A stretch of DNA of 20,000 bases from Jimgerdemannia flammicorona (GCA_003990765.1 RBNJ01000013.1:44762-64761), one strand, 5' to 3'. Positions 1-20,000 are shown, numbered from the stretch's first letter. Notes: a model not told the origin generated them from the sequence alone. A program made the numbers and translations.

Positions 1-748
1 TACTTCCAGAGATGTCATTTAAAATTGTTGATATTGCTGTCCTTCAATATATAGCTCCAAGTTATACAATAGTTGCAACTGATGAGCTTACTTTGTAAAT
101 TCTATTTGAATAGAGATATATGAGACTATATTAGAACCTCAACTACTTACAACCAATCACCTACTCTTATGACTAATGAGACCAATTACCCCTATGAATA
201 TAACTATTAGTAAAATGTATAAAACTACCTTTGTAGTATGATTCTACACCTAGCTATTATTAGGTTTTGTTTTTATTTTTATTCTTATACTCATTAGTGA
301 TAATAAACTAATGGAGATATCTGATATATCCTCTGATATATTCTCTGATATATCATCTGACAGTTCTGAGATTTCTCCTAAATATACTTCTTGATCTTTA
401 GACATTTCAAATATTTGATAACAGTAGGGACTGGGAGCTTGAGTGGGAGGCTGAGAGCTGGAAAGTGGCTAGGAAGTAGTAAGCTAGAGAGTGGCGAACT
501 GGAAAATGAGCTAGGGGGGCAGTGAACTAGAGAACAGGAAGTTGGGGGGAGGCAGTGAGCAGCAGGAAAAGCCAGGAACTGTGGAGCCTGGAACAGGAGT
601 CAGCGAGCTGGAGAGCAGCAAGAGAGAGAGCAATAAGGTGGCATATAATAGCCAATAATTGATTGTAGACAGAGGATGGATGAATAAATATGCATGAGTA
701 GTAAACTAGTACCCATCACATAACTGCAAACAGCAAACATACTTTGGA

Positions 749-1180
749 GATTCAGCATGTTCTATATAAGCCCTGATTGAGCAAGGTTTGTAATAACATT
801 TGAGCAAGGTTTGTAGTATGTTTGAGCAAGATTTGTAGTGAGGTTCAAGCAAGATTTACAAGCAAGATTAAAGTGAGATTTGTAAGCAAGATTTGCATAT
901 AAGATTAAAGCAAGATTTACATAAGTCAGACTTTGCAAGCCTTGTACTTGCAAGGCTGGACAAGCTCAGTCACAAGCTGATATAATATATATATACATAA
1001 GCTGATATCACATGATATCAGCTATTGGCTGAGCTTGTAAGTACAAAGCTTACAAAGCCTGGCTTATACAAATCTCATTTGCAAATCTTACTTGAACCTT
1101 ACTGCAAATCTCACTGTAAATCTCACTCAAACATACTACAAATCTTGCTCAATTGGGGCTTATACAGAACCCACTGAATC
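749..1180. mobile_element. Foldback/MITE-like palindromic element 1
   Basis: 749-~975 (gattcagcatgttctatataagccctgattgagcaagg...) is an imperfect reverse complement of ~1021-1180 (...cttgctcaattggggcttatacagaacccactgaatc). The arms are built from short gcaagattt-like subrepeats. No coding capacity and no clear TSD. Confidence 0.7.
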
Positions 1181-1185
1181 ATGCA

Positions 1186-1390
1186 GAGAGGAGTGGAACA
1201 CAGTGAGGAAAGCTCCAGATTGCAAGTATAAGCATAAGTATAAGCTTTGCTCTGCTCAGTCTGACAAGCTAATAATAAGCTAATATCATGTGATATCAGC
1301 TATCAGCTGAGTGAAGCAAAGCTTGCACTTGTGCTTATGCTTATGCTTATGCTTGTAATCCAGAGCTTTCCTCACTGCATTCCACTCCTC
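1186..1390. mobile_element. Foldback/MITE-like palindromic element 2
   Basis: agaggagtggaacacagtgaggaaagctccagattgcaagtataagcataag... is the reverse complement of ...cttatgcttgtaatccagagctttcctcactgcattccactcctct. It shares its central motif with element 1. Confidence 0.7.
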
Positions 1391-1499
1391 TTACATTCTA
1401 CTCCTCTTGTATTCCACTCCTCTTGCATAACCCTCATATATTCCTCCACCTCCCTCACCCTCATTTCTCAGATTGCAAACAACATGTAATTTAGAAATG

Positions 1500-1605
1500 A
1501 GTTTTGAAAGAGATTTTGAAGAGATTCTGAAAGAGATTTCAAAGAGATTCCAAAAGAGCTTCTAAAAGAGATTTTAGAGAGATTCTGAAAGAGCTTCTGA
1601 AAGAT
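1500..1605 (+). repeat. Degenerate ~11-12 bp tandem repeat (GAAAGAGATTCT-like)
   Basis: About 9 successive gaaagagattYY-type units. Confidence 0.7.
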
Positions 1606-1729
1606 GTTATAGCTTTTGAATATTTAAGATATTGAAAGCTTACTTTTATCTCTCATTCTTTTCACCTCATCCTTTACTTCACCTTGTCCTTCACTTTGCC
1701 TTACTTAATTCACTGCTATATTGAGAAAA

Positions 1730-3012
1730 CATGGATATGACTGTCTGGTCAATAAGTATTTACTTGGTCCCCCCTAAGCTTGACATACTTTAGCTCACTA
1801 TCCCAAAGCTTGGCACTCTAAAGATGCCCAGCTTGCTGATATCCAACCTGCTGAGCTTGCTGACACCCAGCCTACTGAGCTTGTCAACACTCAGCCTATC
1901 AAGCTTGCTGACACCCAGCCTGCCAAGCTTGCCAATACCCAGGTTGCTGAGCTTGCTGACTCCCAGCTTACTGACCCTCAGCTCCTCAATCTCCAGCTTG
2001 ACCACCAGCTCACTGCTGGTCTGCAAGCACAAGGTCCCCCACCAGATCTCAATAATGTAGCTTGAAAAAGTTAGTTTTTTTTTTTTTTTCATTTTAAATC
2101 AATGTCCAAATTTTTTTCCTAATAATATTTGAAATATATATATCCTCTAGCTTCTAAGCCTGGGCTGGAGTACAAATCTTGCTACAATTGCCATTTTTGC
2201 TATTAAGTTTGCCCAAGCACTATCTGGAAGTATTACCAAACCAATTTCCTAGATGCCCCAAATCTCACAGAGAAAAGGCCTTATAAATCAGACATTAGGT
2301 ATGTTTTCACTGTGGCCAACAAATGTATTAAGAAAGTACATGACAACCAACTGAGGCAAGAAGTCATAAGAGTGATAAAAAACTATGTAAAAATTATAGA
2401 ACATTTGTCATACTATGCTGGCTTCAAGGTGAATGCCAAAGCATGGAACAAGCAAGATTGTCCAGATAGAATTGTTATCATAGATGAACATGAAAAACTG
2501 CTGGCCATATTTGAATGAGTACTAGTGAAGAATGACAAAATGCTTTATATACAACTGATGGATAACAGACTTGTGCATTTTGTTGAGAGTAGTGGTGGTG
2601 GAGAAGATGAAGAGATGGGAGAGATTAGTGCTGGTGGAGGAGTCAGTGCCAGTGGAGAGGTCAGTGGAGAGGTCAGCATGGGGGAGGTTGGTGTGGGGGA
2701 GATTGGTGCAGGGAAGGTCAGTATGGAGGAATATGGAGAGATCAGTGTGGGGGAGGTCAGCATGGAGGAACATGGGGAGGTCAGCATGGAGGAATACAGT
2801 GAGGTCAGTATAAAGGATGAAATGGAGGTTAGTATAGAGGAGGTTGGTGCAGAGAAGGATATGAAAGAGGAGGATATAGAGAAAAGTGGTTCAGAATATA
2901 TGAAGGAAGATGATTTGGAATATGAGAAGAAGAAGGATCAGTTGGTTTATAGTGATAAAGAGGAGGAGGATTAGTTAGTTTATAGTGAGGAAGAGTAAGA
3001 TCTATTCATACT
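1730..3012 (+). pseudogene. Decayed, probably intron-containing gene or TE ORF of unknown function (Pro/Ser repeat, globular segment, acidic G/E-rich tail)
   Basis: ORFs 2312-2518 and 2525-2974 are in the same frame and separated by a single TGA. Intron-like segments are present: gttagt...cctctag (2070-2150), gtatgt at ~2298, gtaagt at 3013. No recognisable domain. Confidence 0.35.
1827..2000 (+). repeat. Degenerate 24-bp (12-bp subunit) tandem repeat CCCAGCCTGCTGAGCTTGCTGACA
   Basis: About 7 imperfect units. They generate the PSLLSLLT / SKLGRLGV periodic ORFs on both strands. Confidence 0.75.
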
Positions 3013-3159
3013 GGTAAGTTCTTTATTTTTCTGATTTACTTCCTATTTATTTCTAATTTCATTTTGATTTCTGATTCCTAATTATGTTTCTGTTTGTTTA
3101 TTCTAAATATATATCTTAAATGTGCAATATATTTTTTTTAGTACCTTGTAGCTTAAAGG

Positions 3160-3465
3160 TAGATTAAAGATGGATCTATGTTAGGTTAAATATAGATCAG
3201 GGTTGGGTCATATATATTTCTCAGATCAGATCACATATATTTCTTGGGTTGAGTTAAAGATGAGTTACATATAATTCTGAGTCAGATTAAAGATGGGTGA
3301 CATATATTTCCAGATCAGGTTAAAGATGGATAATATATAATTCTGGGTCAGATTAAAGATAGGTGATATATAATTCCAGGTTGAATTAAAGATGAGTGAT
3401 GTATAATTCTGGATCAGATTAAAGATGGGTGATGTATAATTCTGGGTTGAGTTAAATATGTACAT
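3160..3465 (+). repeat. 33-bp minisatellite (GGGTYRGRTTAAAGATGGGTGAYRTATAATTCT)
   Basis: ttaaagat recurs at 3254, 3287, 3320, 3353, 3386 and 3419 (period 33), with degenerate copies on the flanks. Confidence 0.9.
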
Positions 3466-3793
3466 GAGTTAGCTTGGGTTGTAATGCACTAGCTATTATA
3501 GATAGAAAAAAGAGTAATAATAATAAACTAGTTAGATACTAGACTAGGAGTAGTTGTTAGAATTGAGATAGGTATTATCTTGGTAGAGCTTTTTGATTAA
3601 CTAGAGTAGTATAGTAACTAATATTCTAGCTTATCTAACTAGAACTAAGAGCTAATATAACAATATGATCAAGATCTGTAGTAGGATTATAATCTTTTCA
3701 GGCCTTAGCCTATATGTATATTAATCCTTTTGAGAGAGTCTTATATATAGGTTTTTTACTCATCTACTATAAATCTATTCTACTTTTTATTAG

Positions 3794-3797
3794 TTAG
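3794..3797 (+). repeat. Left target-site duplication TTAG
   Basis: TTAG lies immediately before the LTR start TGTCA and again at 12565-12568 immediately after TTACA. Confidence 0.8.
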
Positions 3798-4135
3798 TGT
3801 CATGTAGTGGTTGCTGAGTCTTTCAAATACACCAGATTCTCTTCAAGGTGTATCTCTTAGACTAACTCAAGTTTGTTATAAGCAAGTTCTTATTGGACTG
3901 CCTTCCTAAGGTCTTATAGTCCTTAAACTTCTTATCTTTAACTGTCTTGTTATCTCTTAAATTGCTTGCAAGGAAGTGTGTGTAAGTAAAACTGGAACTG
4001 ACTTTATTTCAGAGAAAATAAGAGGGGTATTTATACAAAATATAATTCAATGGTTGCTAAGATATAAAGTTAAATATAAATTCCAATAACTAAAACTACT
4101 AAGTTCCAGGGTTGGCACTGATGGTTGTACAGGCT

Positions 4136-4305
4136 CAGGATACTGGTATAATTCAGTGTCATATCAGAATACTGGTGCTGGAATAATTTCGCATCACCTC
4201 AGAATACTGGTACTGGAACAATTTCACATTACCTCAGAATACTGGTGCTGGCATTATCCAGTGTTACATGAGAATACCAGTGCTGGCATTATCCAGTGTA
4301 ACAAA
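4136..4305 (+). repeat. 35-bp tandem repeat inside LTR (5 units here, 4 units at ~11378-11510)
   Basis: cagaatactggtgctgg-like unit starts at 4136, 4165, 4200, 4235 and 4270. Confidence 0.8.
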
Positions 4306-4309
4306 GAAC

Positions 4310-5116
4310 TTAGAGCAGAAAGTTCAGGACTATGTGGGCTTCATTCTCATCATCATCATCACTGAAGGAGATGAGATCTATAAATTTATCATTTTCACAT
4401 GATTTGATGTTATACGAGATGACATCATCACTGATGACATCATCATGTTTGGTGGGGAAATCAGAGAGGAGGTCTGGGGCTCTCCAGTCTATGAGGTTCT
4501 CTTCCACAAAATAAGGGACAAATGTGGGATCTTGGGGAGATCTAACTCAGATGCTTGGGCCTTGGAATACTGAGATCAACCCTTGCAGGAATTGGTCTGG
4601 GTTGTCCTGGAGGATAGGGTACCAGAAGTCTTCTACTTCATCACTATTGAGGGTGATAGTGGACTGGGCTTCTGTAGCTATCCTGACTTCTAGTGCATTG
4701 ATACAGTGGGATAACAGATCTCTGAAATCTGAGACTCTAATATACTCCAAGTTGGGGATCAACTATGGTACATGTCTGAAGATCTGATAGATCTTCTTAG
4801 CTGTCCTTATTTCATATATATCCATGGAAGTGGCATCTTGTAGCTCTTGAGTGCTGGCCTGTGGGAACTCCTAGCAGAGGAGGTTTCCTATTTCGTACTC
4901 CTGCCACATTTGGAGACATTCAGTAGCAATGGTGATCCTTGTTTCCATTTCACAGCAGTAGAGGATAAAGTGATAAGAGTCTGCAGTACTCAGGTTGACA
5001 CTAGGAGTTCTTCTTGAACAGGTCCTCATGGCTCTTCTGATGTCTTAGAACATCCTTTCTTTGACTGAGATACCTTGGTGGTTCCTTGACCTTGAGGTTT
5101 GGTAGGCAGCAGGCAT
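4310..5116 (-). pseudogene. LTR-internal (U3) ORF, ~268 aa, unknown function (3' LTR copy)
   Basis: aaaaATG at 5116 to TAA at 4310: MPAAYQTSRSR...DIRRAMRT...YEIGNLL...RTAKKIYQIFRHVP...SDDDDENEAHIVLNFLL*. All four internal stops are sense codons in the other LTR. Confidence 0.7.
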
Positions 5117-5358
5117 TTTGTTTGTAGTAAGTCTTTGAGCTATTTTGGGATTGGTGGTTCTTATTGGTTGCTGCTACTGCAGTTCCTTGATCCTTCTTTT
5201 ATATTCTTCAGGATACTTGTACTGTGGTTACAATGACTCACAGTTAGTCATCATTGCTCATCTTGTATACCATATGATCTTCTTGTGTTCTGATCTGGTG
5301 ACTTATAAGGAAAAACTATCTCCCATGCTAATGTCATCATTCTGAGGTCACCATTACA

Positions 5359-5368
5359 TCTTCCTCCT
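5359..5368 (-). other. Polypurine tract (AGGAGGAAGA)
   Basis: Purine-only run on the minus strand directly abutting the TG start of the 3' LTR. Confidence 0.85.
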
Positions 5369-5671
5369 GAATAAGAATCTTCTTGAGTGTCCTTATTCAT
5401 TAGTCCAGTCCTGAAAAATTTGCTGATCTCATAACCTCTGGCAAGGGGTCAAAAAGTGGTGTTTATGGGCTGGCATCTTCCCTTTGTATTTTGGCATAAT
5501 GGTAAAGAGTTGCTCCCTTCATATAGAGCAAGGGCCTGATTCTGATCTTGACTAATCAATTGATGGTTCAAACTCCTCTAACTTTGAAAGTCTTACAGAT
5601 AAGTAGTTACCAGTGCCATATCTCTTAGAGAATGGTCCAGACAGATAGCCTGCTGGTCACAGGACATGCTG

Positions 5672-6908
5672 TTATGATTTGCAGACTAGAACCTCATGGG
5701 CAGTCATCATGTTTTGCTTCTCTTGTATAGATTTGTGGTACTTCTTGAGTCTGTTCCTATATATTGTAGTAGGCAGTATAGTCTCTGAGATTTTTCTAAG
5801 CCAGAAGGTAGTTCCCTTGATATCTTGCATGTAGAAGAGTTCTTCCCATTTGGGCTCCAGTTTTTGTAACTATGAGGCTTCTACCATATTTTGATACAGT
5901 AGAACCTTTTCTCCAATTCAGATAGGTTCTAGGGCCTTATGATTCTTTTCTGTATTCTTCCTTATCAGTGCTTGTAACTTGGTGATATAATCTTCAGCCT
6001 TCTTCTAGTCTCCAGATTTCTGCATCAACCCATCTCCAAGTTAGATCTAGATTCATGGCTGAGGTTCCATCAGAATCTTCTTCTCCGAAGAGCAGCTCTC
6101 TTGGAGTAAAGTGTGTGCTCTGTGACTATATGTCTCATAGGACAGAGAGGGCAGTTGGGAGATAGTTATCCCAATTCTCATATATCTCTGAGATCTTCAC
6201 TAGGATATTCTTGAGGGTCTTGTTGGTTCTCTCTATCTGTCCATTTCCTTAAGGGTGGTATATAGTGGTCTTGATGTGCTGGATCTTGTATTTCTGATAT
6301 ATTATCTCATGGAATCTATTGACAAATTCTGTTCTGTAGTCTGTTGTGATTTGCTTTGGTGTCTTGTAGCAGTAGATGATTTCTCGATGCAGGAAGTCAG
6401 CTATAGAGAGGGCATTGGCTTCTTGTAATGCTCCTGTCTCTATCCATTTGGTGAAGAGGTCTACAATAACTATAATATAGTGGTTTCCTGATAGTTTTAC
6501 TGATAGTGGTCCAATAATATCCATTGTGATATAGTGGAAGGGGATAAGCTCAATTTTTAATAATCTGGATACCTGGTCTTGCTGATCTTGTTTCTGTTTT
6601 TGACACTTGTCACACCCTTTGACAAATTGGCACAGGTCTTCTTCCATCTTGGGCCACTATATGGTTCTTCTTGCCTTATCATATGTATTGGTTCTTCCTA
6701 AGTATCCTTGCTCATGTACTTCCTTCATTACTTGATACTTCTTATATTCAGATATTACTAGCTTTCCTCCTTTTCTGAGTATAGTGTTGTCTAATTCAAA
6801 CTGTTTCCAAGTCTGGTTGATGATAGTGATTGTTCAGGGTTTAAGGTAGTTGGGCATCTTCTGCTGCCTAAAATAGCTGATTAATCCATAGTATAGCTCC
6901 TTATTCAT
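5672..6908 (-). pseudogene. Integrase (HHCC zinc finger, DDE core, GPY/F-like C-terminus), disrupted
   Basis: HEQGYLG...WPKMEEDLCQFVKGCDKCQ; ITMDIIGP, ITTDYRTEF, GNGQIERTNKTL; C-terminal KLEPKWEELFY...RNRLKKYH. Contains stops and one frameshift. No chromodomain seen. Confidence 0.9.
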
Positions 6909-7300
6909 GTTGAATAGTCTTGATGTAGATATTTTGGGGTATTCTTGAGAGTGCATCAGCATTGGTGTTGATCTTTTCTGAGTGGTGCTTGACAGTACAG
7001 TCATACTCTTGCAGTCTGTAGATCCATCTGGCATATATTCTTTTGGGGTTCAGAGTGTGGAATAGCCAGACAAGAGCAGAGTGGTCTGTTTGAATAGTGA
7101 AGTGTTTCCCAGCTAGGTAGTAGTGGAACTTGTCTACTGCCCAGACCACTGCTAAGCATTCAAGCTTGCATGACTCATAGTTCTGTTCTGCTCCGCAGGT
7201 ACCTTGGCTTGCATAGGAGATGACATATTCATGTCCATCTTTCTTCTGAGCTAGGACTGCTCAAAGTCCTATAGCACTTACATCTGTCTGCAGGATGAAT
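6901..7300 (-). pseudogene. RNase H of Gypsy pol
   Basis: FILQTDVSAIGL*AVLAQ...YASQ...EQNYESCKLECLAVVWAVDKFHYYL...TDHSAL...RWIYRLQEYD...NTNADALSR. Confidence 0.93.
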
Positions 7301-8250
7301 TCTAGGTTCCAATCTGGTCTTCTGAAGATAAGTACTTGAGTCAATCTGATCTTGAGTTCATTGAAGGTTTCTTGGCACTCCTTGGTCCATTCAAACTTGG
7401 TTTTCTTCTTCAGTAGCTCATAGATAGGTGCTGCAATATTGGAGTATCCTTTGATGAATTTTCTATAGTAGCTGGCTAGTCCAAGGAAGGCGTGGACTTC
7501 TGTAGTTGTTCTGAGTCTCAGATAGGCTGCAACAGCCTTGATCTTCATAGAGTCTGTGTGGATTCCAGTCTGGTTGATGAGGTGTCCTAGGTAGGTGATT
7601 TCTTGAGCTGCAAACTTGCATTTTTTGGGCTTGATGTAGAGGTCATACTTCTTGAGCTTCTTGAGGGCTAGCTGTATATGATTGACATATTCCTGTATAG
7701 TGTTGCTGAAGATGATCACATCATCAACATAGACAAAGAGCCATTTTCTAATCTCGTTGCTGAAGACTCTGTTCATCATTTGCTGAAAACTTGCTGGGGT
7801 ATTGCATATTCCAAATAGCATTCACAGATAGATATAGGTGGCATTAGGTGTGATGAAGGCTGATTTCTCACTGGCATCTTGAGTGAGACCAATCTGATAG
7901 AAGTCTGAGAACAGATCCAAGGTGGTGTAGTATTTGGCTTTACTTCCAAGAGTGGTAAGGATTTCCTAAATATTTGGCAAGGGCTGCCTATCCTTCTTGG
8001 TAATAGCATTGAGCTTCCTGTAGTCAATACAGAGTCTTGGCGCAAATTCTCCAGGCTTGTTTCCTTTCTTTGGGGCAAGGACAATGGGTGAGGCCTAGGG
8101 GCTGATAGCTTGCTTGATGATCCCGGCTTCTTCTATTTCCTTGAGTTCTGCTTGCAGCCACTCTCTGTAGGCAGGTGGTATGGGTCTGGCTTTCTGGTAG
8201 ATGGGCTTGGTATTGCCAGTGTCAACTTCATAGTAGTACTTGGATTCTTA
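7301..8250 (-). pseudogene. Reverse transcriptase (Gypsy type) and connection region
   Basis: ASPIVLAPKK...RLCIDYRKLN...TLDLFSDFYQI...MLFGICNTPASFQ...YVDD (7720-7731)...KKCKFAAQEITYLGH...FLGLASYYRKFI. Several nonsense codons. Confidence 0.96.
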
Positions 8251-8419
8251 ATTGTAGATATCCCTGAAGTCTGTAGCAAGTACTCCTTCATTCTGGTACA
8301 GGATCTTGAGAAGTTGTTCCTCCAGGGGAAAGTTTTCTCCAATGGTATATGTGTGCTTGTTCTAGTCCTTGTCTTTCTTATACTCGAGTTCAGTAATCTT
8401 GGTAGTGGCATAGGCTCCT

Positions 8420-8835
8420 CTTCCAGTAGATCCAAAGTCTTGTTCTCCTCTCTTGGTCTTGATGAGTTCGATGGCTTCAATGATCTTGGGCTTCTTAATT
8501 TCATGGATCAGCATCTGACCAATCCTGTCATACTTCTTGACTTCAAAGGGGGTGATGTAGTTGTGATTTCTGACTATGAGGAAGATCTCACTAGTGTAAT
8601 CGGGGTCAATTACTCCTCCTTCAACTGAGATTTTGCTTTTGACCAGACTGCTCCTGGTCTTGATAATTCCGGCATGGTTCTCTGGCAGCTTGACTCCAAT
8701 TCCAGTGTCAAGTAGGATAGTGGTCTGTAGTTCTAGGATAGCATCTTGAATGCTGGCAAGGTCCATTTCTATGGCTCCTTCAGTCTTATATTCTGGGATC
8801 TTGGCTTTGGGGTAGAACTTCTTAACCTTGAGAGT
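8420..8835 (-). pseudogene. dut: Trimeric dUTPase domain within pol
   Basis: All five dUTPase motifs in order: TEGAIEMDL (I), KTRSSL (II), GGVIDPDYTSEI (III), YDRIGQM (IV), RGEQDFGSTG (V). Same frame as RT. Confidence 0.93.
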
Positions 8836-9189
8836 GATGTCTGATTCTTGTTCCTCCTCATTGTCACTGTCAGCTTGGAGCTCTGGGGGCTAGTCATCTT
8901 CTTCAGCTTTCCTTTTTACTTTGGTAGCTTCTTGCTCATATTTCTGTTGACAGATTTTCCTAACTTTACTGATACAGGACCAGCAGTCATTCAGGTGTTC
9001 AGAGCAGTACATCCTAGTACCATGGGGGCATCTTCCTTGAGGGGCATAGCCATCGATGATCTTGTTGTACTACTGCTCATCTGTAAGCTTGGGTGTCTTG
9101 TTCTTGTTCTTATTCACTGAGTGCATAAAGACCTCTGTATCCTTTTCATCTCCTTCCTCTATGTCTAGTAGGACTCCTTTGTAAACATT

Positions 9190-9560
9190 GATAGAGACTT
9201 ATACCTTTCTTCCTCTATAGTTGATCTGCATCTTCTGGGTATTGAGGTCAATGATAGCCTTGGCCTTATGAAGCCATTGGTTACTAATGAGGATGTCATA
9301 GTTGGTGGTGCTTATAACAATCACATCTACTGGGATAGTAGCTTGATGGGGACTTCTTGGATTTTGCCAAGGGGGATAGCTTATGTACCATCTGCTGTAA
9401 CATAGACCATCTTGGTGGACTCTTTAATATCCCAGCCTAGGCAGTCAATTGCCTTCTTACTCATGAGGCATTCTCCAGCACTAGTATCAATGATGGCATC
9501 AAAGATACAATCTTCGATCTGACATAAGGTATAGGCTGATATCTTGCACTGGTCTTCGGA
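9190..9560 (-). pseudogene. Retropepsin-like aspartic protease
   Basis: AIIDTSAGECLMS (DTGA>DTSA), VTADGT, then YDILISNQWL...AIIDL. One stop and a frameshift near 9342. Confidence 0.85.
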
Positions 9561-9834
9561 TTCTTTACCTGAGTTTTCGGATTCTTCCTGTGTATTGTGA
9601 GCTTCTACAATCTTGTACTCTTGATTCTTGACAGTAGTTGCAAGTCCTACTCTCAACTGCTATCTGAAGGCAGAGACTTCAGCTAGCTGTCCAAAGGTAG
9701 CATTGACCTTCTGTTCCTTAAGGTTCTTGTAGATATCATACTAGTGGATCTTGGTCTTGCATAGCTTCTGTTCCTTCTTGCTTTCACTTTCTCTTGAGAC
9801 TGGAGTAGTGCCTTTAATGATTTGGTGGGCAGCT

Positions 9835-10983
9835 TCATCTATATAACTCCATGTCTTGATCAATTTTCTCAGGTTGGGTCTTGCTTTGAATAGTGACAGC
9901 TGGGGTCTTCTTTGGTCTTCCAACTGGCTTGCTGTTGCTCTTTTTGTCATAGAGCTTGGACTGGGTTCTGGTACCTTCAGTAGTAGGATAGAATTCAAGC
10001 TCCTTATAATATTCTTCATCATCAGTGTCACCAATCTCCTCAATGACTACTGTATTGGTTTGTTCTCTGGTTCTACTAGTATTGCTTAGTTGGGCTTTGT
10101 GTCTTATTTTGGTTATGTAATTCTTTGCATAGTGGCCTTCTTCTCTACATCTGAAGCATGTGATATTGCATTCTTCTATAGCAGCTGCAAATCTCTGTAC
10201 TAGTCTCCTGTTAGTGCTTTGGACTTCTCTAACAACATCACTAAGGTATGCAATCATCTCAGCAAACTGCTTAACAAGTTCCTCCACTGGGTCAGCTTTG
10301 GCTATCTTGGGGATAGGTGGGGTTGATTGTCTGTTTACAACTATAGCAGGTAAGATACTAGTTGACTTTGATGGCTCTATCTTGATGTCAGTTATTTTCT
10401 CTATTGAGTGTTCGGCAGAGTGTCTGGCAGTCCAATATCTCTATACAAAGACTACTTTCTGATCAAGAGTCAGTGCAGCTGGGGTAGACCGGATTGCTAG
10501 GGCAATTTCAGAGTGAACTCCTTTGAGGAAAGTTGAATCTGCTATTTGTTCCTTGAGGCAGTCATCATAGCCAGCCAAGACAATCTGGTGGCGGATTCAG
10601 GTATAGAATGAGTTGGGATCTTCACTAAGTCTCTGGCAGATAGTATTGAGTTGATCCTTGAGAGCTTGCTTGATCTCTTTGGTATAATATATTATTCTGA
10701 GGAAGGCCTTCATGTTGGCAAGTTTGGCTGCACCAGCATCAGCAATGGTGGCTATATTGAACTTGTCTCTGGTAGGTCCTCTGAGGCTGACTGGTAGGAG
10801 GACCAATTGAGTATCCATACCAAGGGCTTGGATAGTAGCAAATTGTTCAAAGTCTTCAATGAAGGTCAGGATTGACTCTTCAGTAGTATATCCATAGAAT
10901 GTGGGGGGATATATTTCTATCTTATCTTGAATTCTTGCAGAGGTGACTCTTGTAGTCAGGGTAGTTGTTGTGGAGTTGTTCAT
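9835..10983 (-). pseudogene. gag with CCHC zinc knuckle
   Basis: ATG at 10983; PPTFYG...FIEDFE...SLRG retrotransposon-gag-like region; CFRCREEGHYAKNY (10117-10158, last Cys>Tyr). In-frame stops at 10597 and 10441. Confidence 0.85.
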
Positions 10984-11018
10984 TTTTCAGCTTGAAAGTG
11001 AGGGATTCGTCTTGAATC

Positions 11019-11036
11019 ACCAGCCAATGGGTACCA
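11019..11036 (-). other. Putative primer-binding site TGGTACCCATTGGCTGG
   Basis: Begins with TGG (complement of tRNA CCA) 3 nt inside the 5' LTR end. Cognate tRNA not identified. Confidence 0.65.
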
Positions 11037-11244
11037 AGTTGTCATATAGTGGTCACTGAGTCCTTCAAATATGCCAGATTCTCTTCAAGGTGTATTTCTT
11101 AGACTAACTCAAGTTTGTTATAAGCAAGTTCTTATTGGAGTGCCTTCTCAAGGTCTTATAGTCCTCAAACTTCTTATCTTTAACTGTCTTATTATCTCTT
11201 AGATTGCTTGCAAGAAAGTGTGTGTAAGTGAAACCAGAACTGAC

Positions 11245-11277
11245 TTTATTTCAGAGGAAATAAGAAGGATATTTATA
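11245..11277 (-). promoter_or_regulatory. LTR TATA box (TATAAATA, 11277-11270) and polyA signal (AATAAA, 11250-11245); same motifs at 4035-4028 and 4008-4003
   Basis: Both motifs are conserved in both LTRs in U3-R order on the element's sense strand, implying a U3 of ~1.29 kb. Confidence 0.55.
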
Positions 11278-11516
11278 CAAAATATAATTCAATAGTTGCT
11301 AAGATATAAAGCTAAATATAAATTCCAATAACTAAAACTACTAAGTTCCAGGGTCAGCACTGATGGTTGTACAGATTCAAGATGCTGGTATAATTCAGTG
11401 TCACATCAGAATATCAGTGCTGAAACAATTTTGCATCATCTCAGAATATTGGTGCTGGAACAATTTTACATTACCTCAGAATACTGGTACTGGTATTATC
11501 CAGTATAACAAAGAAC

Positions 11517-12322
11517 TTAGAGCAGAAAGTTCAGGACCATGGAGGCTTCATTCTCATCATCATTATCACTGAAGGAGATGAGATCCATGAATTTGTTATT
11601 TTCATATGCTTCGATGTTGCGCAGGATGACATCATCGCCAATGACATCATCACATTCGGCAGGGAAATCAGGGAGAAGATCTGGGGCTCTCCAGTCTATA
11701 AGGTTCTCTTCTACAAAATAAGGAACAAATGTGGGGTCTTGGAGAGATTAATCTGAATGCTTGGGCCTTGAAATACTGAGATCAACCCTTGTAGGAATTG
11801 GTCTGAGTTGTCCTGAAGGATAGGGTACCAGAAGTCTTCTACTTCATCACTATTGAGGGTGATAGTGGACTGGGTTTCTGTAGCCACTCTGGCTTCTAGT
11901 GCATTGATATGATGGGATGATAGGTCTCTGAAATCTGAGACTCTAATATACTCTAAGTTGGAGATCAACCATGGTGTATATCTGAAGATCTGATAGACCT
12001 TCTTAGCTGTTCTTGTTTCATATATATCCATGGGAGTAGTATCTTGTAGCTCTTGAGTGCTGGCCTGTAGGAACTCCCAGCAGAGGAGGTTTCCTATTTT
12101 GTACTCTTACTATATTTGGAGGCATTCAGTAGCAATGGTGATCCTTGTTTCCATTTCATAATGGTAGAGGATAAAGTAATAGGGGTCTGCAGTACTCAGA
12201 TTGACACTAGGAGTCCTTCTTGAGTGGGTCCTCATGGCTCTTCTGATGTCTTGGAACATCCTTTCTTTGACTGAGATATCTTAGTAGTTCCTTGACCTTG
12301 AGGTTTAGTGGGCAGCAGGCAT
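11517..12322 (-). pseudogene. LTR-internal (U3) ORF, 5' LTR copy
   Basis: Same ATG and terminal TAA as 4310-5116. Carries its own private stops and a 1-bp deletion. Confidence 0.68.
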
Positions 12323-12564
12323 TTTGTTTATAGTAAGTCTTTGAGCTATTTTGGGATTGGTAGTTCTTGTTGATTACTGCTACTGTAGTTCCTTGATCCT
12401 TCTTTTATATTCTTCAGAATGCTTATACTGTGGTCACAATGACTCACAGTTAGTCATCATTGCTCATCTCATATACTGTATGATCTTCTTGTATTCCAAT
12501 CTGGTGGCTTGCAAGGAAAGGCTGTCTCCTATACTGATGTCATCATTCTGAAGTCACTGTTACA

Positions 12565-12568
12565 TTAG
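12565..12568 (+). repeat. Right target-site duplication TTAG
   Basis: Matches 3794-3797. Confidence 0.8.
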
Positions 12569-12903
12569 TTAAAGGGTTTTTTCTTTATCTCTAACTTTTG
12601 TTTGGGATCAGAAGAGTTATATTATTTAGTTTCAGTATTATTAAATCTGATATATAGATATACTCTCATAATATTGATCTGATAATCTAGCTCTAGTAAA
12701 TAGACAAGTCTGATCTATATATTATTAGAATGAGAATATGTAATACTACTCTTATATAGCTAATATAGTAAAACTGCTAGTTCTCTCTATAGCTTAAAGA
12801 TAATAAAGAGATAGTACTTAGGGAAAGAGAAAGTGAGGGAGATTTTTAATCTATATAGTTTAAGTTCTTTTCTAATAAAAATCTATAGAAACTTAATTCT
12901 GTT

Positions 12904-12979
12904 AAAAAAAAAAAAAAAAAAATTTAAAAAAAATATAAAATTATAATAAAAAAAAAAAAAAAAAAAAAAAATATTTTAA

Positions 12980-13017
<38 letters not shown>

Positions 13018-13103
13018 TAATCAATCTATACCTTTATTATTTCAGTAGAAACATAGCTTGGATCTTTTATTATTTAAAAAAAAATAAAAAATAAAAAAAA
13101 AAT
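12904..13103 (+). repeat. Poly(A)-rich low-complexity tract
   Basis: Several A runs of ~10-30 nt. Confidence 0.9.
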
Positions 13104-13339
13104 AACTTGGATCTCTTAAAATCAATATTGAAGTTAATATTTAAAACAAAATAGTAATCTGAGAACTATAAAAGAAGTAGTACTCTGAATGAGTCAATTC
13201 AATCTAGATTGAATTCAGATTAAATCTCATTTGGATTAGCTTAGATAGAAAATGAGCTGATCTAGATTGATTCAAATTGAATATTATTTTGATTTCTAAT
13301 ATTAACAACTTGATATATAATTATCTAATTTTAATTATT

Positions 13340-13487
13340 ATAGTGTCATTTTAAAGCTCTTAATAAGACCTTTCTAATAATATCAAAAACATTGAAATTA
13401 GATTATATATTGCTGAGTTATTAAGAAAAATGTCTGACTTACTGATTTTGGAAATTATCCTTATTAAGAACTTTCAAATGATACTAT
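13340..13487. repeat. 28-bp imperfect inverted repeat pair, probable decayed DNA-transposon remnant
   Basis: atagtgtcattttaaagctcttaataag (13340-13367) versus cttattaagaactttcaaatgatactat (13460-13487), 3 mismatches. Confidence 0.55.
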
Positions 13488-13967
13488 GATCATTAAAATT
13501 AGATGATTATACATTAAGTTATTAATGTAAACATTGAATTGTCTAATTTAGAAGTTAATTCAGATCTGCTCATTTAGAATACTAGAAAGAAGATATTATT
13601 TTTATTTTTTGAGATTTTCTTTTTGTAAATAATTTATATTAAGATATTAAAGAGAATAAGATAAAGATAGAGACAGAGGTAAATACAGAGACAGAGGTGA
13701 AGACAGAAGTTCTGACATTATGATTTCTGAGTATAGACTTGACATTATAAGTTCTTTGCTCTAAAGATATATAACCTAGATGTATGTATTTTATTCTCTT
13801 TATTCTAATGTCAAAGTATACTGGCCAAGACACCAAGAAGTTTGAATGCTTTGGATGCAGAAAGTAATATATATAAAGGGAGTTTATTTTTACAGATAGA
13901 GGACATGAGGGAGGTGGATATAAATATATACTTCTGTAGTAGAGAAGCTAGAAACGACGCCGGCTAA

Positions 13968-13995
13968 ATATCACGTGATATCACTTCCCCACGTG
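13968..13995. promoter_or_regulatory. E-box cluster: perfect palindrome ATATCACGTGATAT plus a second CACGTG
   Basis: 13968-13981 and 13990-13995, 55-83 nt upstream of the ATG at 14051. TCACGTGA is a canonical bHLH (Cbf1/SREBP-type) site. Confidence 0.5.
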
Positions 13996-14050
13996 CCGTC
14001 ATCTTGGAAAGGACAGAATCCCCCGACTCTTTATTACCTTATACCTGTCA

Positions 14051-17000
14051 ATGTCATCCCCGGACAAAGATCTCGCTCAACTAGACGCCCTCTTTGAGAA
14101 GCTTTCCGTTCTCGATGGTATATTACGTCGCACCGTCCGTCTGCACTGCCATGCTGTCGCTTAAGCTGAATCTTACATAAAAACTACAGCAAATGACGTA
14201 GAGACCCTGAAGGACGAACTCCCCGCCGTCGTTGATAAACTGCAAAAGAACGAACTTCTGCTGAGGAACTCGGAAAATGCAGCCGACTCAAAACTCCTAG
14301 ACCCTGTCTGGGCGCGGGTCAAGCGGGGGGCCGAGATTTGCGCAAATGCCGCGAAGGACGGTACGTGTCGTTCTCGTGTTTTTAACGGCGCTCTGCATGT
14401 GAAGGGATCGAATGCACATAATTCCACCTACTGTTCATTCCAATTAATAGCACGTACGTTTGATTGAAATTTTGCTTAATGCAGAGTCGGCAAGGACGCC
14501 CATTGGTGAATCCGGCTCGATAGAGCTTTTGGTAACTTTTATGAAGTTATCCAGCCCGACACACGTCGAGGTTACCATTCAATGCCTGCGGGCCCTCGCC
14601 AACCTCTGCTTCGATCATGGTATATAGCTCTCTCTTTTTACGTTAGTTTGGAAGGGATCAATGAAGAAATGACAGACATGATCATCACCGGCGTACCGAA
14701 ACTCAATCTTTGACAATCCCGTAATCCTACTCCATCCGCCAGACGTGAATCGCAAGCGAACGTCGACCACCGGCGCCGTCTCCGTCATTATCGGGTTCGT
14801 CAACACATCTAACAACGCCAACCTGGTGCGGACCTCGTGCGGGGCGCTGCTCAATCTCGGTTTGAATTATGGTTGGTGATGGGCACCACAATCCTTCTCT
14901 TGGAACGTTTGCCTTTGCTTCTGTTTGGGTCAGCTTGCCGCCCGCTCATCCATCTGTCCGTATCCCCTACGTACATATCCGCAGAACCTATCCAAAGTGA
15001 GATCCTTCGCCTCGAAGGCCTCCCCGTCCTCGTCAAGCTCCTCTCTTCAGATCGACTCAATCACCAGGCTGTTTGCCTCGCGGCGCGCGTTATCAATTAC
15101 CTCGTCGGCCTCGGTACGACCCCACTGCTGTCTTTCTTTGCCGTCTTTTTCTGTCCGCATTCTTCTTTGTGCTCAAATTTACAATGAAATACGATACATC
15201 CTCAGATAAGGGCCGCCTCCAGTTTACCAAGATCGAAGCCATTGTATCCTTCGTCAAGGTGCTCGAGTATTCGTGGCAGGTGGACAAGAGCCAGGACCTG
15301 GACCTGATGGAGTCAGTGGTGGACGTGCTGGAGTCGACCGTGCTGGAAGAGAGTGAGGGCATCTTTGGTTGCGCTGCGGTTGAATGTTTAGGCGATTGAA
15401 TCCGTCTGCTGTTGTGATGCTCCCGGATTTCGGATAGTTTTGTGATTTCGAAATCGGCGTGTAAACCTTGATCGTAACGTTTCATCCTCCGCCAACTTTT
15501 GTGCGACACAGAGGCTGACGCTATCCAGCACACCGTCGCCAAATCCGGCGTGTTTCCGCTCCTGCTCGACTTCGTCGAGAGCGCGACGCCGCCAAAGCAC
15601 GCCGACGAGGACGACCAGAAGCAGTTTAATGAACTGAGGAAGACGGTCGTCAAGATCACCGTCGCTGTCACGCTAACTGGTAGGTTCGCTTGCGGATTGA
15701 GTTTGCTACTGGTGCAGAGATAAGACATGAGCTTTAGGAATGGTGCGAATGCGAGGTGGAATTTGTCGAGACAGGGCGTTGCACCAAAACGTGGGACATG
15801 GGCAGGGTAATTTCGGCCAAGCGACCATAACAATGGAGTGTCATTATGATACCTTTTTTTTCGATGCCTTTTCGCCTTCATCAATCGCCAGACAGCAACA
15901 TGAACCTGCTCTATAAAGACCAGACCATCCTCGGCCGCTTTATTAGTTGGCTCCGCGACGACGTATTCGCCAGCCGCGACGACCTCCACGCCTGCGCGGC
16001 TCTGAGCATTGGGAACCTGGCGCGAAACGGTGAGTTTCACGCGTGCATAATGGGTTGTTTAGATGCCCACCGAGACTAATTGGATCCCCGTGCGGCCACC
16101 TTCCAATCATGCAGACGAGCACTGCATCGACCTCGTGCAGAAACATCACCTCGAGGTTCCGCTGCTCGCCATCCTTATGAGGACAAATGACATGCGGACG
16201 CAGCACGCCGTCATCAGCATTGTAAAGAATCTGAGCTTGCCCAGTATGTAGACTCTCGTTATCCCATTATGTTTTCTTGGAGAAAGGTAGACTTGGAGAA
16301 GACGGTCAGCATTGTATTCAAGTTGCGCGTCGTTCGTCATCTAATGCAGAGGCCAACAAGTCCCTCCTAGGCGCGTCTGGGGCGATCCAGGCGGCCGCAC
16401 GCTTCCTCAAGGAGTCCAAGGACATGCTCAAGCCGATCCAGTTTGGGGCCGTCGGGGTTCTGAAGCACCTGGCGACAGGGAACTGTGGGTATCTTATTAG
16501 GAATTCGTGCAGCAAAGCGTTTTGAGGTCGTGGTTGCAATTAGAGTTGAGAAGTCCAGGCGTTCGTTCCTACCGAGGCCATGCTGGTTGTATAATCTCAT
16601 CCGCCCCATGCAATTCCATTGCATACTTGTCTCTTTTGTCTGCATCACCCCTATGTTTTACCACAGTTGAGAATGCAAGCCGCATGATTACCGGTCGCGA
16701 GCCGTCGGACCAGTCGCCGTCCTTGACGACGACGCCGCTCGATCGGCTGATCGCATTGGTTAGGCGGACGGATGATATGCCGACCAAGAGCGAGGGCACC
16801 CGTGTACTGGTCAATCTGGTAAAGGTCGTCTGGGCGCAAGGTGGGTGATTTTCGGATCGCTTGGATGTGATAGGTGGTTCCAATATTCGTGCAAGCGGTC
16901 GGTGTGCGTGGTTCTGGAAGGTGTATTTGCCTGTTGATATTGGCTTTTTTGATGTCTTGTTTTCTTTGCGCTTTTCAGACGTCTTAACCGACATCCTACA

Positions 17001-17841
17001 GCCCAAGGACGGCATCTCGACGGCCCCCCTACGTCGCACGCTCCTCAAGAGCGACGGCGTAGTCCCGCCGATCGCGGAGATGATCCGCACCACGCAGTTT
17101 CCCGTACTCCAGAACGAGGGCGTCATGGCACTCACACTTCTGCTGGCGTCGTCCAAGGATGAGGGGGGCGCGGTGGATACAGGTGAGGAGTTGTGAGTGG
17201 AGAATTGGATCTAACCAATACGGTATTCGTGTCATAGTGTGCTCATAACCGAATCGGTTGTTTGGACGCACAGTCTTCACATCTCTGACGACCACGCCCG
17301 CGCCGCCACCCCTCACGGAAGAGGAGGAGGAGGAGGAGGAGGAGAAGGAGAAGGACCCGAAGCCCAAGCTGCCGTCCAAGCCGCTGCTAGACATCTTGAC
17401 GGATATCGTCATGAACGTATCGGGAAAGTACCCTGACGAGATCAGATGTAATGTTTGTTTATTGCTTGGGAGGATTGCTGCGAGTGAGTGTCTTTATTGT
17501 TTTGGTTGTTTCCCCCCAGGATGTATATGTTTGCGAGGATGTGTGGTTTCGGTTCGATTGCAATTGATATTGGACGTCGGTTGTCGTTTGAAAAAGAGCA
17601 TCCCGAAGGTGAACCGCTAGATCATGTCGAAGTAGGATTTCTCACTGAGCCTTTCTTCACCTCCCACTTTGCATTACATTTGATACCATTCGTATTATTC
17701 CCTCCCAAAACAGTTAACCCTGTGAAATACCTCTCGATCGCGAGCGACGTTCGTGGTAAGTTAGAGTCGTTCGCCAACGCCGGCGAGGCCTCGACCATGG
17801 TCATGGAGAGCGTGCGGCAAGTCATGCATAATCTGCACTAA
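14051..17841 (+). CDS. RAP1GDS1: SmgGDS/RAP1GDS1 (Bem4-like) armadillo-repeat small-GTPase chaperone/GEF, 14 exons, 687 aa
   Basis: Exons 14051-14117, 14190-14360, 14485-14619, 14743-14871, 14985-15113, 15206-15352, 15512-15679, 15892-16029, 16115-16243, 16350-16484, 16667-16840, 16979-17182, 17274-17483 and 17714-17841. All introns are GT-AG and the joined frame is open (2064 nt). Family motifs: QCLRALANLCFDH, AALSIGNLARNDEHC, QHAVISIVKNLSLP..NK, SEGTRVLVNL, VLQNEGVMAL, EIRCN. Confidence 0.88.
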
Positions 17842-17979
17842 GAGGCCGAGCTTACAAGTTTTTTATCTTTGCAACGGTCTGGGGTTTCTTATCTGTATTT
17901 GTATAATTTCGTGGGCGATCCAGTCTGAATGAAAGAGGACTTTGAAATCCGAATGATTACGTTTGTGATGATATATACC

Positions 17980-18188
17980 GAATTTCCTATGACCATTGAT
18001 GGTGTACCAGATCTACTATGATCTTGAGTAAGGTGTACTAGATTTCCTATGACCTTGTGCAAGTGTATTAGATTTCACTAAGGTTATTAGATTTCCTATG
18101 ACCTTCAGAAAGATTTACTAGATTTCCTATGACTTTCAGTAAGGTTTATTAGATTTCCAATAAGGTTTACTAGATTTCCTATGACCTT
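17980..18188 (+). repeat. ~31-bp intergenic minisatellite, core AGATTTCCTATGACCTT
   Basis: Unit starts at ~17980, 18009, 18040, 18070 (short), 18089, 18120, 18151 (short) and 18172. Confidence 0.9.
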
Positions 18189-18196
18189 AATCGCTT

Positions 18197-18203
18197 TGAG
18201 TCA
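18197..18203. promoter_or_regulatory. Putative Gcn4/CpcA site TGAGTCA upstream of ILV3
   Basis: Exact TGA(C/G)TCA consensus ~140 nt before the ATG of an amino-acid biosynthesis gene. A CCAAT is also present at 18270-18274. Confidence 0.45.
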
Positions 18204-18340
18204 CGATCATAATGGGTTGCACAGACGCGTCGAAGCGAACGCAAGCCACCGACCAGTCTATGGATTTGACCAATAAAGATCCGAGCTTTTTGCAGGTCAT
18301 ATCTGCCATCCATCTTTTTATTTCCTTCGCGTCCTCCATC

Positions 18341-19952
18341 ATGGCTTCAAGGATCCTACTATCGAAGCGTCCCCCGCACAGTCAAAAGTTCGTCCCCAGA
18401 GCCTCCGCCGTCGGCCTGCGGCACTACACGTCCTCCTCTGACGGTATCAATAAGTACAGCTCTATCATCACCCAGCCCAAGAGCCAGGGCGCGTCTCAGG
18501 CTATGCGTAAGGACGCGTTCCCTTGTGGTTTTGAGAGTCTTACAACTTACTGATCACCATCCGTCCTTGGAGCAGTACTTACTCCTTCATCCCTCACATG
18601 CCCTTCTCGTCTCTCTGGCATCGCTCAATAGTGTACGCCACAGGCCTCGACGATAATGATCTCAAGAAGGCCCAAGTCGGGATCTCCAGCGTGTAAACCC
18701 CTTTCTCTCTCAGGCTTTTCTTTCTTTCCCTTGTATCGATCCTCTCTAACCACTCACCCTTTTTACCTTACAGGTGGTACGAGGGCAACCCCTGCAACAT
18801 GCACCTACTGGATCTCTCCGCCAAGGTCAAGGAGGGCGTGCAGAACGCCAGCCTGATCGGATACCGGTTCAATACCGTCGGCGTGAGCGACGGAATCAGT
18901 ATGGGAACGAGGGGGATGAGCTACTCGTTGCAGAGTAGGGATCTGATCGCGGATAGCATCGAGACGGTGGGTGTGTTTGAGTGCGGATTGGGGGTGGGGT
19001 AGTCTTCTTGATGGCCCGTATATGCACATTAAATATCGATTGCTACAGAGCCACGTCAAAATTCCACCCAGACGAACCCATCTTTATCCAGCCTGCCCTT
19101 TTCCTCCCTATCCTAGGTCATGGGTGCGCAATGGTACGACGGCAACATTTCGCTCCCCGGGTGCGACAAGAACATGCCAGGTGTGCTGATTGCCATGGGT
19201 CGACTCAACCGGCCAAGCCTGATGGTCTACGGTGGCACTATCCGACCAGGCAAATCGTGTGCGGGTGACACCCTCGACATTGTCTCGGCCTTCCAGGCCT
19301 ACGGCGAGTTCGTCGCCGGTTCCATCAACGAGGAGAAGAGGTACGAAATTATCAGGAACGCGTGCCCGGGCGCCGGCGCCTGCGGTGGAATGTACACTGC
19401 TAACACGAGTGAGTAGAATGGATTGATGCATGCTTTGTCGCCGTACGTTTTTATTTTCTATACTCACCTCCTCATAACCGCACGTGCAGTGGCCTCCGCC
19501 ACGGAGGCGATGGGCATGACGCTTCCGTATTCGTCGTCTACGCCAGCAACGCATCCAGACAAGATTAAGGAATGCCTGGACGCTGGCACTGCGATCCGTA
19601 CCCTACTCGAGCGAGATATCAAGCCGCGCGACATTATGACGCGTAAGGCGTTTGAGAACGCTATGGTACTGACGATGGTGCTAGGTGGTAAGGAAAATTG
19701 GGAAGGGAGGGGGAAATGGGAGAGGGGGGTCGACGGAGATCGTGGGTAAAATATGAGGGTATAGGTATTTTTAATGAGGCGAAACGTGCATGATCTCATT
19801 TTGATGGACTGGGGGGATATCTAAATTATAGGTTCTACGAACGCCGTGCTCCACCTACTCGCCATCGCTCGTTCCGTCGGCGTTACCCTGACTATTGATG
19901 ATTTCCAGACCGTCAGCGACCGTATACCCTTCTTGGCTGACTTGAAACCTAG
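18341..19952 (+). CDS. ILV3: Mitochondrial dihydroxy-acid dehydratase, 5' part (continues beyond window)
   Basis: Exons 18341-18506, 18632-18692, 18774-18966, 19117-19408, 19490-19687 and 19832-19952. Motifs [73 protein letters not shown]. Arg/Ser-rich presequence. Confidence 0.96.
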
Positions 19953-20000
19953 GTATGTGGATAACAAACAATGCCTTCGATTGCGGTTTTTTTTTTTTTT

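Follow-up and report, generated by a model that had tools for sequence, protein, structure and literature searches.

Apart from the locus described here, genes that lie wholly inside a long terminal repeat (LTR) are, to our knowledge, known mainly from mouse mammary tumour virus (MMTV). The MMTV sag open reading frame (ORF), which codes for a superantigen, is located in the U3 part of the LTR, upstream of the TATA and poly(A) signals, and is hence present in both LTRs; like HIV nef, it is expressed from a spliced subgenomic RNA. The accessory genes nef of HIV and SIV and bel/bet of foamy viruses are located at the 3' end and extend into U3, and one foamy virus product, Tas, is an acidic transactivator that acts on the LTR. 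Placing a poly(A) signal close to the transcription start site is the classic retroviral way to keep the signal off the 5' end of genomic RNA.

LTR retrotransposons are known to carry additional ORFs (aORFs), such as the env-like and antisense ORFs of plant elements and that of Boty of Botrytis, which lie in the internal region (PMC7264820). ORF0 of Retrosat2/RIRE (PMC3485330) and CERV of Cer1, which is encoded by a spliced mRNA (PMC10309623), are internal-region ORFs as well. The sections of the aORF review used here place no aORF inside an LTR (PMC7264820). Among fungal gypsy elements, a dUTPase located between protease and reverse transcriptase (RT) has been described in PosPlaTy3-5 of Postia, in Phanerochaete, and in Tmt1 of Tuber (PMC2864245), the last of which is described as chromodomain-bearing (PMC12581995). 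In the open-access literature that we searched, no ORF inside a retrotransposon LTR was found, and the matches were mostly to retroviruses and their vectors.

We analysed a 20,000-nt stretch of the Jimgerdemannia flammicorona genome (hereafter, the window), which contains a single Ty3/gypsy-type LTR retrotransposon, at 3798-12564 in minus-strand orientation. As in the case of sag, the LTR is long (1.3-1.6 kb) and contains the whole of an ORF of ~0.8-1 kb, which is located upstream of TATA and poly(A) signals. Unlike MMTV, the carrier is a fungal-type Ty3/gypsy element without env, a conserved TATA box is present just upstream of the ORF, and the protein, which has a basic N-terminus and an acidic tail, has no Pfam match and no segment resembling a membrane anchor by eye. 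The likeness to nef and bel lies in the presence of an accessory gene at the 3' end; those ORFs, however, have their start outside the LTR, on its upstream side, and merely extend into it, while here the ATG lies beyond the polypurine tract and 243 nt into the LTR. The same position sets the ORF apart from the internal-region aORFs, with which it shares the properties of a lineage-specific orphan conserved at the protein level within its family, situated beside gag-pol, and of unknown or regulatory function. The element also resembles PosPlaTy3-5, the Phanerochaete elements, and Tmt1 in having a dUTPase between protease and RT, a rare arrangement in retrotransposons. It differs from them in its LTR ORF, of which there is no mention in the cited part of PMC2864245, and from Tmt1 in that no chromodomain is seen by eye. 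What appears to be new is thus a sag-like layout in a fungal-type retrotransposon, together with a new protein family. The explanation that, in our view, best accounts for the observations as a whole is that of a genuine accessory gene residing in the LTR as a U3 cassette with its own promoter and coding for a regulator; we would assign it a probability of roughly 0.7.

The features of the element are collected in Table 1. Its assignment to the Ty3/gypsy type is based on direct LTRs with TG...CA ends (89.4% identity over 1525 aligned positions), a short, 4-bp target duplication, and the domain order protease, RT, RNase H, integrase, together with a CCHC gag. Both LTRs start with TGTAAT/C and end with CATGACA. 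The 3' LTR boundary is further defined by other copies, present in soil-metagenome contigs, which diverge into primer-binding-site-like sequence exactly at 3798. A candidate primer-binding sequence that begins with TGG directly follows the 5' LTR, and it recurs at the same boundary in other soil-metagenome copies. The protease was identified by eye alone, from a D[TS]G-like motif, AIIDTSAG; no chromodomain was seen by eye after the integrase, and Rfam and tRNA scans of the whole window produced no matches. Only ~55 nt separate the gag ATG from the 5' LTR, and most of these are occupied by the primer-binding site. The terminal CATGACA holds the sole ATG of the last ~360 nt of the LTR, and in the 5' LTR this ATG opens a 21-codon upstream ORF across the primer-binding region (11045-10980, minus strand). 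The TGA that closes this ORF overlaps the ATG of gag (ATGA), as is typical of termination-reinitiation.

Table 1. Features of the retrotransposon and of its LTRs, in window coordinates; positions within the LTR are counted from the LTR start
Feature	Window coordinates	Strand	LTR position	Basis or remark
Target-site duplication TTAG, left	3794..3797	.		same 4 bases at both element ends
Target-site duplication TTAG, right	12565..12568	.		same 4 bases at both element ends
3' (left) LTR, 1561 nt, TG...CA ends	3798..5358	-		LTR-LTR alignment
5' (right) LTR, 1525 nt	11040..12564	-		LTR-LTR alignment
Polypurine tract AGGAGGAAGA abutting 3' LTR	5359..5368	-		read in sequence
Internal region: gag (CCHC), protease-like, dUTPase, RT, RNase H, integrase; all stop-broken	5369..11039	-		PF00098, PF00692, PF00078, PF17919, PF00665, PF17921
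zf-CCHC (gag)	9835-10440	-		Pfam
dUTPase, between protease-like region and RT	8362-8889	-		Pfam (PF00692, E 1e-23)
RVT_1 + RT_RNaseH_2	7261-7821	-		Pfam
Integrase_H2C2 + rve	6249-6656	-		Pfam
LTR ORF, left copy: 268 codons + TAA, 4 internal stops, no frameshift	4310..5116	-		translation; tblastn
LTR ORF, right copy: 4 internal stops + 1-nt deletion at codon 192	11517..12322	-		translation, alignment, tblastn
TGACTAA + TGAGTCA motifs, candidate AP-1/bZIP-like	5234..5250	-	~109-125	by eye; ~35-50 nt upstream of TATA1
TATA1 TATAAAAG, candidate ORF promoter	5196..5203	-	156	80 nt upstream of ORF ATG
ORF ATG / stop		-	243 / 1049	left LTR
35-nt tandem repeats	4164..4303	-	~1056-1195	between ORF stop and TATA2
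TATA2 TATAAATA, candidate genomic-RNA promoter	4027..4034	-	1324	near LTR 3' end
AATAAA poly(A)-signal motif	4003..4008	-	1351	starts 27 nt downstream of TATA2 start
LTR end		-	1561	left LTR
TATA1 in 5' LTR	12402..12409	-	156	motif position
TATA2 in 5' LTR	11270..11277	-	1288	motif position
AATAAA in 5' LTR	11245..11250	-	1315	motif position

The ORF is located wholly inside the LTR (positions 243-1049 of 1561), after the polypurine tract, and is duplicated in both LTRs, which is the architecture of sag. When four members of the protein family described below were used as tblastn queries, matches in the window were obtained solely at the two LTR ORF sites. The initial annotation had proposed that each LTR carries the same AAAATG and the same terminal TAA (5116 to 4310 and 12322 to 11517), and both sites were found exactly there. 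It had also proposed that an ancestral frame was broken by different stops in the two copies. Codon by codon, the four stops of the left copy, TAA at codon 24 (5047-5045), TAG at codons 82 (4873-4871) and 118 (4765-4763), and TGA at codon 190 (4549-4547), indeed correspond to sense codons in the right copy, and the stops of the right copy, at codons 6, 14, 71, and 72, correspond to sense codons in the left; the terminal TAA is the only stop in common. The 1-nt deletion in the right copy, by which this copy is frameshifted as well, had been overlooked. If only the stops common to both copies are counted, the frame is open over 287 codons, compared to 54-156 codons for the other five frames.

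Over 1525 aligned positions, 161 differences (10.6%) are seen between the two LTRs, and all but three of them (158) are transitions, as expected if the internal stops arose by C>T/G>A decay. Differences are equally dense inside the ORF (90/806) and outside it (71/719), and are distributed over the three codon positions as 35/20/35, which implies that the copy in the window has decayed neutrally since insertion. The element copy in the window has been inactive since it inserted, and is dead from C-to-T decay. The ratio of observed to expected CpG is 0.02 in the left flank (1-3797) and 0.07 in the element (3798-12564), against 1.1 in the gene region (14001-20000), so the loss of cytosines appears to be specific to repeats; the left flank is probably old repeat DNA as well. 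Classical repeat-induced point mutation (RIP) was considered and rejected, since the element does not have the corresponding indices ((CpA+TpG)/(ApC+GpT), 1.46; TpA/ApT, 0.84). CpG-centred deamination of cytosines in repeats fits the decay better.

Several further features were recorded in the surroundings of the element. An AT-rich block (12565-14000, 23% GC, with poly(A) runs at 12873-13040) separates it from a gene-rich region with 51% GC, where the introns of the genes are short and, by eye, have CTAAC-like branch sites; these introns and the CpG loss specific to repeats make a fungal host likely. A dihydroxy-acid dehydratase gene (ILVD_EDD_N) is represented by exons at 18640-19750, plus strand, which are separated by introns of ~80-150 nt, its identity being backed by an Atlas look-up, and a neighbouring gene contains a weak Armadillo-repeat match (14837-15187, plus strand; E 0.0026, below the Pfam cut-off). 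Tandem arrays are located at 3245-3475 (33-nt period), 1825-1974 (24 nt), and 18009-18195 (~31 nt), the 24-nt array being inside a 100-codon minus-strand ORF (1790-2092). Three inverted-repeat pairs (797-1155, 1187-1391, and 13301-13526) have arms of 49-67 nt with 86-88% complementarity, separated by 87-261 nt, and might represent small elements of the foldback or MITE-like kind.

To look for relatives of the LTR protein, the left copy was read through with X at its four stops, and the resulting sequence (P0001) was used as a query. Six proteins among 183 candidates matched at E<=0.01, and five among 1.84 billion cluster representatives at E<=0.001; a profile built from the first matches led to 11 homologues. 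All of these come from metagenome collections, and none has a name beyond "hypothetical protein". The intact relatives are 247-342 amino acids long and 29-81% identical to the frame. P0003 (271 amino acids) is 69% identical over its full length, and in a tblastn search the left copy was aligned to it with the same identity over 274 columns (E 1.7e-118). P0009 and P0011 have 323 residues, P0021 has 325, and P0019, which is encoded on a 4848-nt contig and is 36% identical, has 342. Intact members share an MPA/MPP start, several conserved blocks in the core, and, mostly, a C-terminal LNF-L/I. DNA was retrieved for one relative, L001, whose 323-codon ORF lies on a contig of 1345 nt. L001 was the single confirmed locus among 380 pattern matches in metagenome contigs; neither the 65 matches in viral contigs nor the 12 in genome contigs yielded another.

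Related DNA is abundant in the four contig sets that were compared, three from soil-metagenome studies and one from "organism A". Thousands of short contigs are 85-99% like the LTR. Summed contig depth over the LTR, the ORF core included, is ~3-fold that over the adjacent integrase region, as a rough guide rather than a copy number. At a likeness of at least 85%, the stretches coding for the acidic tail and containing the 35-nt repeats are thinly covered. Where the window and the contigs differ, it is more often the window that has A/T and the contigs that have G/C; in run X1, there were 89 A>G and 54 T>C differences, compared to 42 C>T and 47 G>A. At position 4547, in the codon-190 stop of the left copy, most contigs read another base.

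The signals that surround the ORF bear on how it might be expressed. The initial annotation had placed the ORF upstream of the TATA and poly(A) signals of the LTR. This was borne out by the TATAAATA/AATAAA pair found 3' of the ORF; what it had missed is a conserved TATA box (TATA1) 80 nt upstream of the ATG. Identity between the window and L001 in the non-coding LTR is 61-71%. In the leader, the sole identical block of at least nine bases is GAATATAAAA, at TATA1, and in the 3' LTR region the sole such block is TGTATAAATACCCCTC, at TATA2; AATAAA is also present in L001. The L001 contig spans the region from TATA1 to just past AATAAA. As it does not reach the LTR ends, we infer the residence of the ORF in LTRs of the relatives from the common TATA2/AATAAA block and from contig depth. 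The TGACTAA and TGAGTCA motifs upstream of TATA1 are presumably AP-1/bZIP-like, as judged from the consensus. LTR positions 109-242 are free of ATGs, while several are found upstream, at positions 5-108. Another ATG-free stretch, of ~360 nt, precedes the last few LTR bases in both LTRs; in the ATG-free stretches of the window, 4 to 6 ATGs would be expected. No ATG is present in L001 in the 327 nt after position 1018, i.e., from the late ORF to the last base. The 35-nt repeats, of which the right LTR has one unit fewer than the left, are absent from L001; thinly covered by the related metagenome contigs, they look like a fast-evolving, enhancer-like array.

Conservation of TATA1 80 nt upstream of the ATG suggests that the ORF has its own promoter. 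In the proposed scheme, the ORF would lie in U3, and TATA1 would drive a separate mRNA of ~1.2 kb with an ATG-free leader, so that the ORF AUG would be the first AUG. This mRNA would end at the AATAAA of the LTR, and each LTR would thus be a complete promoter-ORF-poly(A) cassette. TATA2 would drive the genomic RNA, which would have an ATG-poor leader. With the AATAAA at or just before the genomic RNA start, the signal would be active at the 3' end of this RNA only. Since the ORF lies wholly inside the LTR, reverse transcription would duplicate the gene into both LTRs.

A simpler layout, with one promoter and one terminator per LTR, is conceivable. TATA1 could be the sole promoter, and TGTATAAATA...AATAAA could be a fungal-type polyadenylation element, in which case the ORF would lie in an R region of ~1.2 kb as the first cistron of the genomic RNA, and its mRNA would be provided by transcripts that terminate in the 5' LTR. 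The position of TATA1, at LTR 156, resembles the layout predicted in silico for rice Retrosat2, with a U3 of ~243 nt and an R of 2023 bp, in the cited part of PMC3485330, and the extent of L001, from TATA1 to just past AATAAA, is in agreement with such an arrangement. However, gag would then follow the 268-codon ORF plus six further ATGs (in the left LTR), while a leader starting near TATA2 would agree with the ~360-nt ATG-free stretch before gag. Moreover, a poly(A) signal located 1.2 kb from the cap would terminate most transcripts within the 5' LTR, and a spacing of 27 nt between the starts of TATA2 and AATAAA is what the classic exclusion of the signal from the 5' end of genomic RNA would look like. 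We therefore regard this arrangement as rather unlikely, if the best placed among the alternatives.

The ORF could also be located in U3 without a promoter of its own and be translated from a spliced subgenomic RNA that originates at the genomic promoter. This is the usual expression route of the known accessory genes at the 3' end of retroelements, MMTV sag, HIV nef, and Cer1 CERV among them. The leader between the 5' LTR and gag is, however, short and consists mostly of the primer-binding site, and no clear splice donor or acceptor was seen by eye. The distribution of ATGs, which are present upstream of TATA1 and absent from TATA1 to the ORF ATG, as well as the conservation of TATA1 in L001, also speak against splicing, and we consider it unlikely.

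Coding capacity and selection were evaluated with L001. Its open run, 343 codons, was not reached in any of 1000 dinucleotide shuffles (mean 94, maximum 186). The codon-aligned pair of the window left copy and L001 gave a dN/dS of 0.144 for the core (codons 1-215) and of 0.184 for the whole alignment, for this one relative and with dS near saturation (pS 0.69). When the same alignment was shifted by one or two bases as a control, values of 1.08 and 1.58 were obtained. Identity by codon position is 0.68/0.81/0.53. As neutral decay of the window copy can only inflate dN, selection on the living gene must be at least as strong as measured. The dN/dS ratio of the core, in this single pair, is thus far from the value of ~1 named beforehand as evidence against a gene, and conservation at the protein level among divergent relatives, another expectation of the initial annotation, was found down to 29-37% identity. 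Its proposal that the ORF was intact in the LTR at insertion is backed by the intact homologues and by purifying selection. Judging from these relatives and from the substitution pattern, the LTR frame represents, in decayed form, a genuine protein-coding gene that belongs to a small orphan family under purifying selection.

A protein-coding gene in an LTR may nevertheless be a passenger that brings no benefit to the retrotransposon, having been captured from the host or left over from another element. Gene capture by LTR elements is known (cited part of PMC7264820), and the acidic tail of the protein is variable in both sequence and length. Against this, the start, the end, and the downstream LTR signals are kept across relatives as distant as 29-37% identity, dN/dS is 0.14, and LTRs would be expected to shed 0.8 kb of useless sequence. 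No annotated homologue was found, nor any longer or fused form among 8000 candidates, which by itself is weak evidence. A passenger is, in our judgement, quite improbable. That the frame is no gene at all, being open by chance or through nucleotide-level constraint on regulatory LTR DNA, draws on the fact that taking the non-stop state at each differing site biases the reconstruction toward an open frame, but it can be practically dismissed given the natural intact ORFs, the 0/1000 shuffles, the coding pattern of substitutions by codon position, and a dN/dS of 0.14 in frame against 1.1-1.6 out of frame.

The arginine-rich N-terminus, helical core, and very acidic C-terminus attributed to the protein at the outset were reproduced by charge calculations and by the predicted structure. 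In P0003, the N-terminal 45 residues are basic, the core of ~170 residues is mildly acidic, and the tail is strongly acidic, with net charges of +8, -15, and -14, respectively; in longer relatives the tail reaches -26. The tail varies in length and sequence and is dotted with short hydrophobic-acidic motifs. A first AlphaFold run with 14 sequences was poor (pLDDT 50), while a run with 19 sequences produced a helical core with pLDDT of 75-95, a small beta-hairpin, and a disordered tail (<40). No signal peptide or membrane segment was seen by eye. Pfam contained no family for P0001 or P0003, and no match below E 0.088 for the other members of a 14-member family set. Searches of PDB sequences, with single sequences and with a profile, produced nothing below E 0.14, and the best ESM Atlas score for P0003 was 0.83, below the lead threshold. 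In fold searches, the best Z was 3.7 for the first model, and 4.7 for the second, for which none of 48161 chains reached Z>=5 in the VIA search. Foldseek with the second model returned no match at E<=0.001 in either PDB (best E 0.71) or the BFVD viral models (best E 0.14). The check by AlphaFold and Foldseek suggested initially has thus provided a modelled helical core that matches no known fold, and no likeness to Sag, Nef, or Bel was detected in the Pfam, PDB sequence, fold, and Foldseek PDB/BFVD searches.

The basic character of the N-terminus, the helical core, the length, acidity, and disorder of the tail, and the lack of any signal peptide or membrane segment by eye together suggest a nuclear protein. 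Foamy virus Tas is the functional analogy that we favour, a Tas/Tax-like role being a working analogy drawn from composition (N-terminus +8, tail -14); the candidate 35-nt repeats are not conserved in L001. Tentatively, the product may be a nuclear trans-acting regulator of the LTRs of its own family, either an acidic transactivator or a regulator acting at the RNA level, e.g., by controlling poly(A) read-through. The next option would be a suppressor of host silencing. The 35-nt repeats upstream of TATA2 are a possible candidate response element, though missing in L001. In its most extended form the proposal is that every LTR, solo LTRs included, might be an autonomous gene (bZIP-like sites, TATA1, leader, an ORF of 268-323 codons, and poly(A) signal) for a new nuclear regulator of transcription, poly(A) read-through, or silencing; we put this forward as speculative, with the odds against it.

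In annotation, LTRs are taken for non-coding promoter and terminator modules, which are masked ahead of gene calling. With a conserved, selected gene inside an LTR, a whole protein family would be invisible to standard annotation; the relatives found here are all unnamed metagenome ORFs. As the protein could be matched to neither a known family nor a known fold, any mechanism that it turns out to have would be new information. The LTR gene would also offer a simple system, outside vertebrate retroviruses, in which to study the self-regulation of retroelements. Solo LTRs, which are usually deemed inert scars, could still be a source of a trans-acting product. If the extended proposal is true, hundreds of solo LTRs would constitute a dispersed reservoir of the regulator, and the LTR gene would be a fungal retrotransposon counterpart to the regulatory genes of complex retroviruses.
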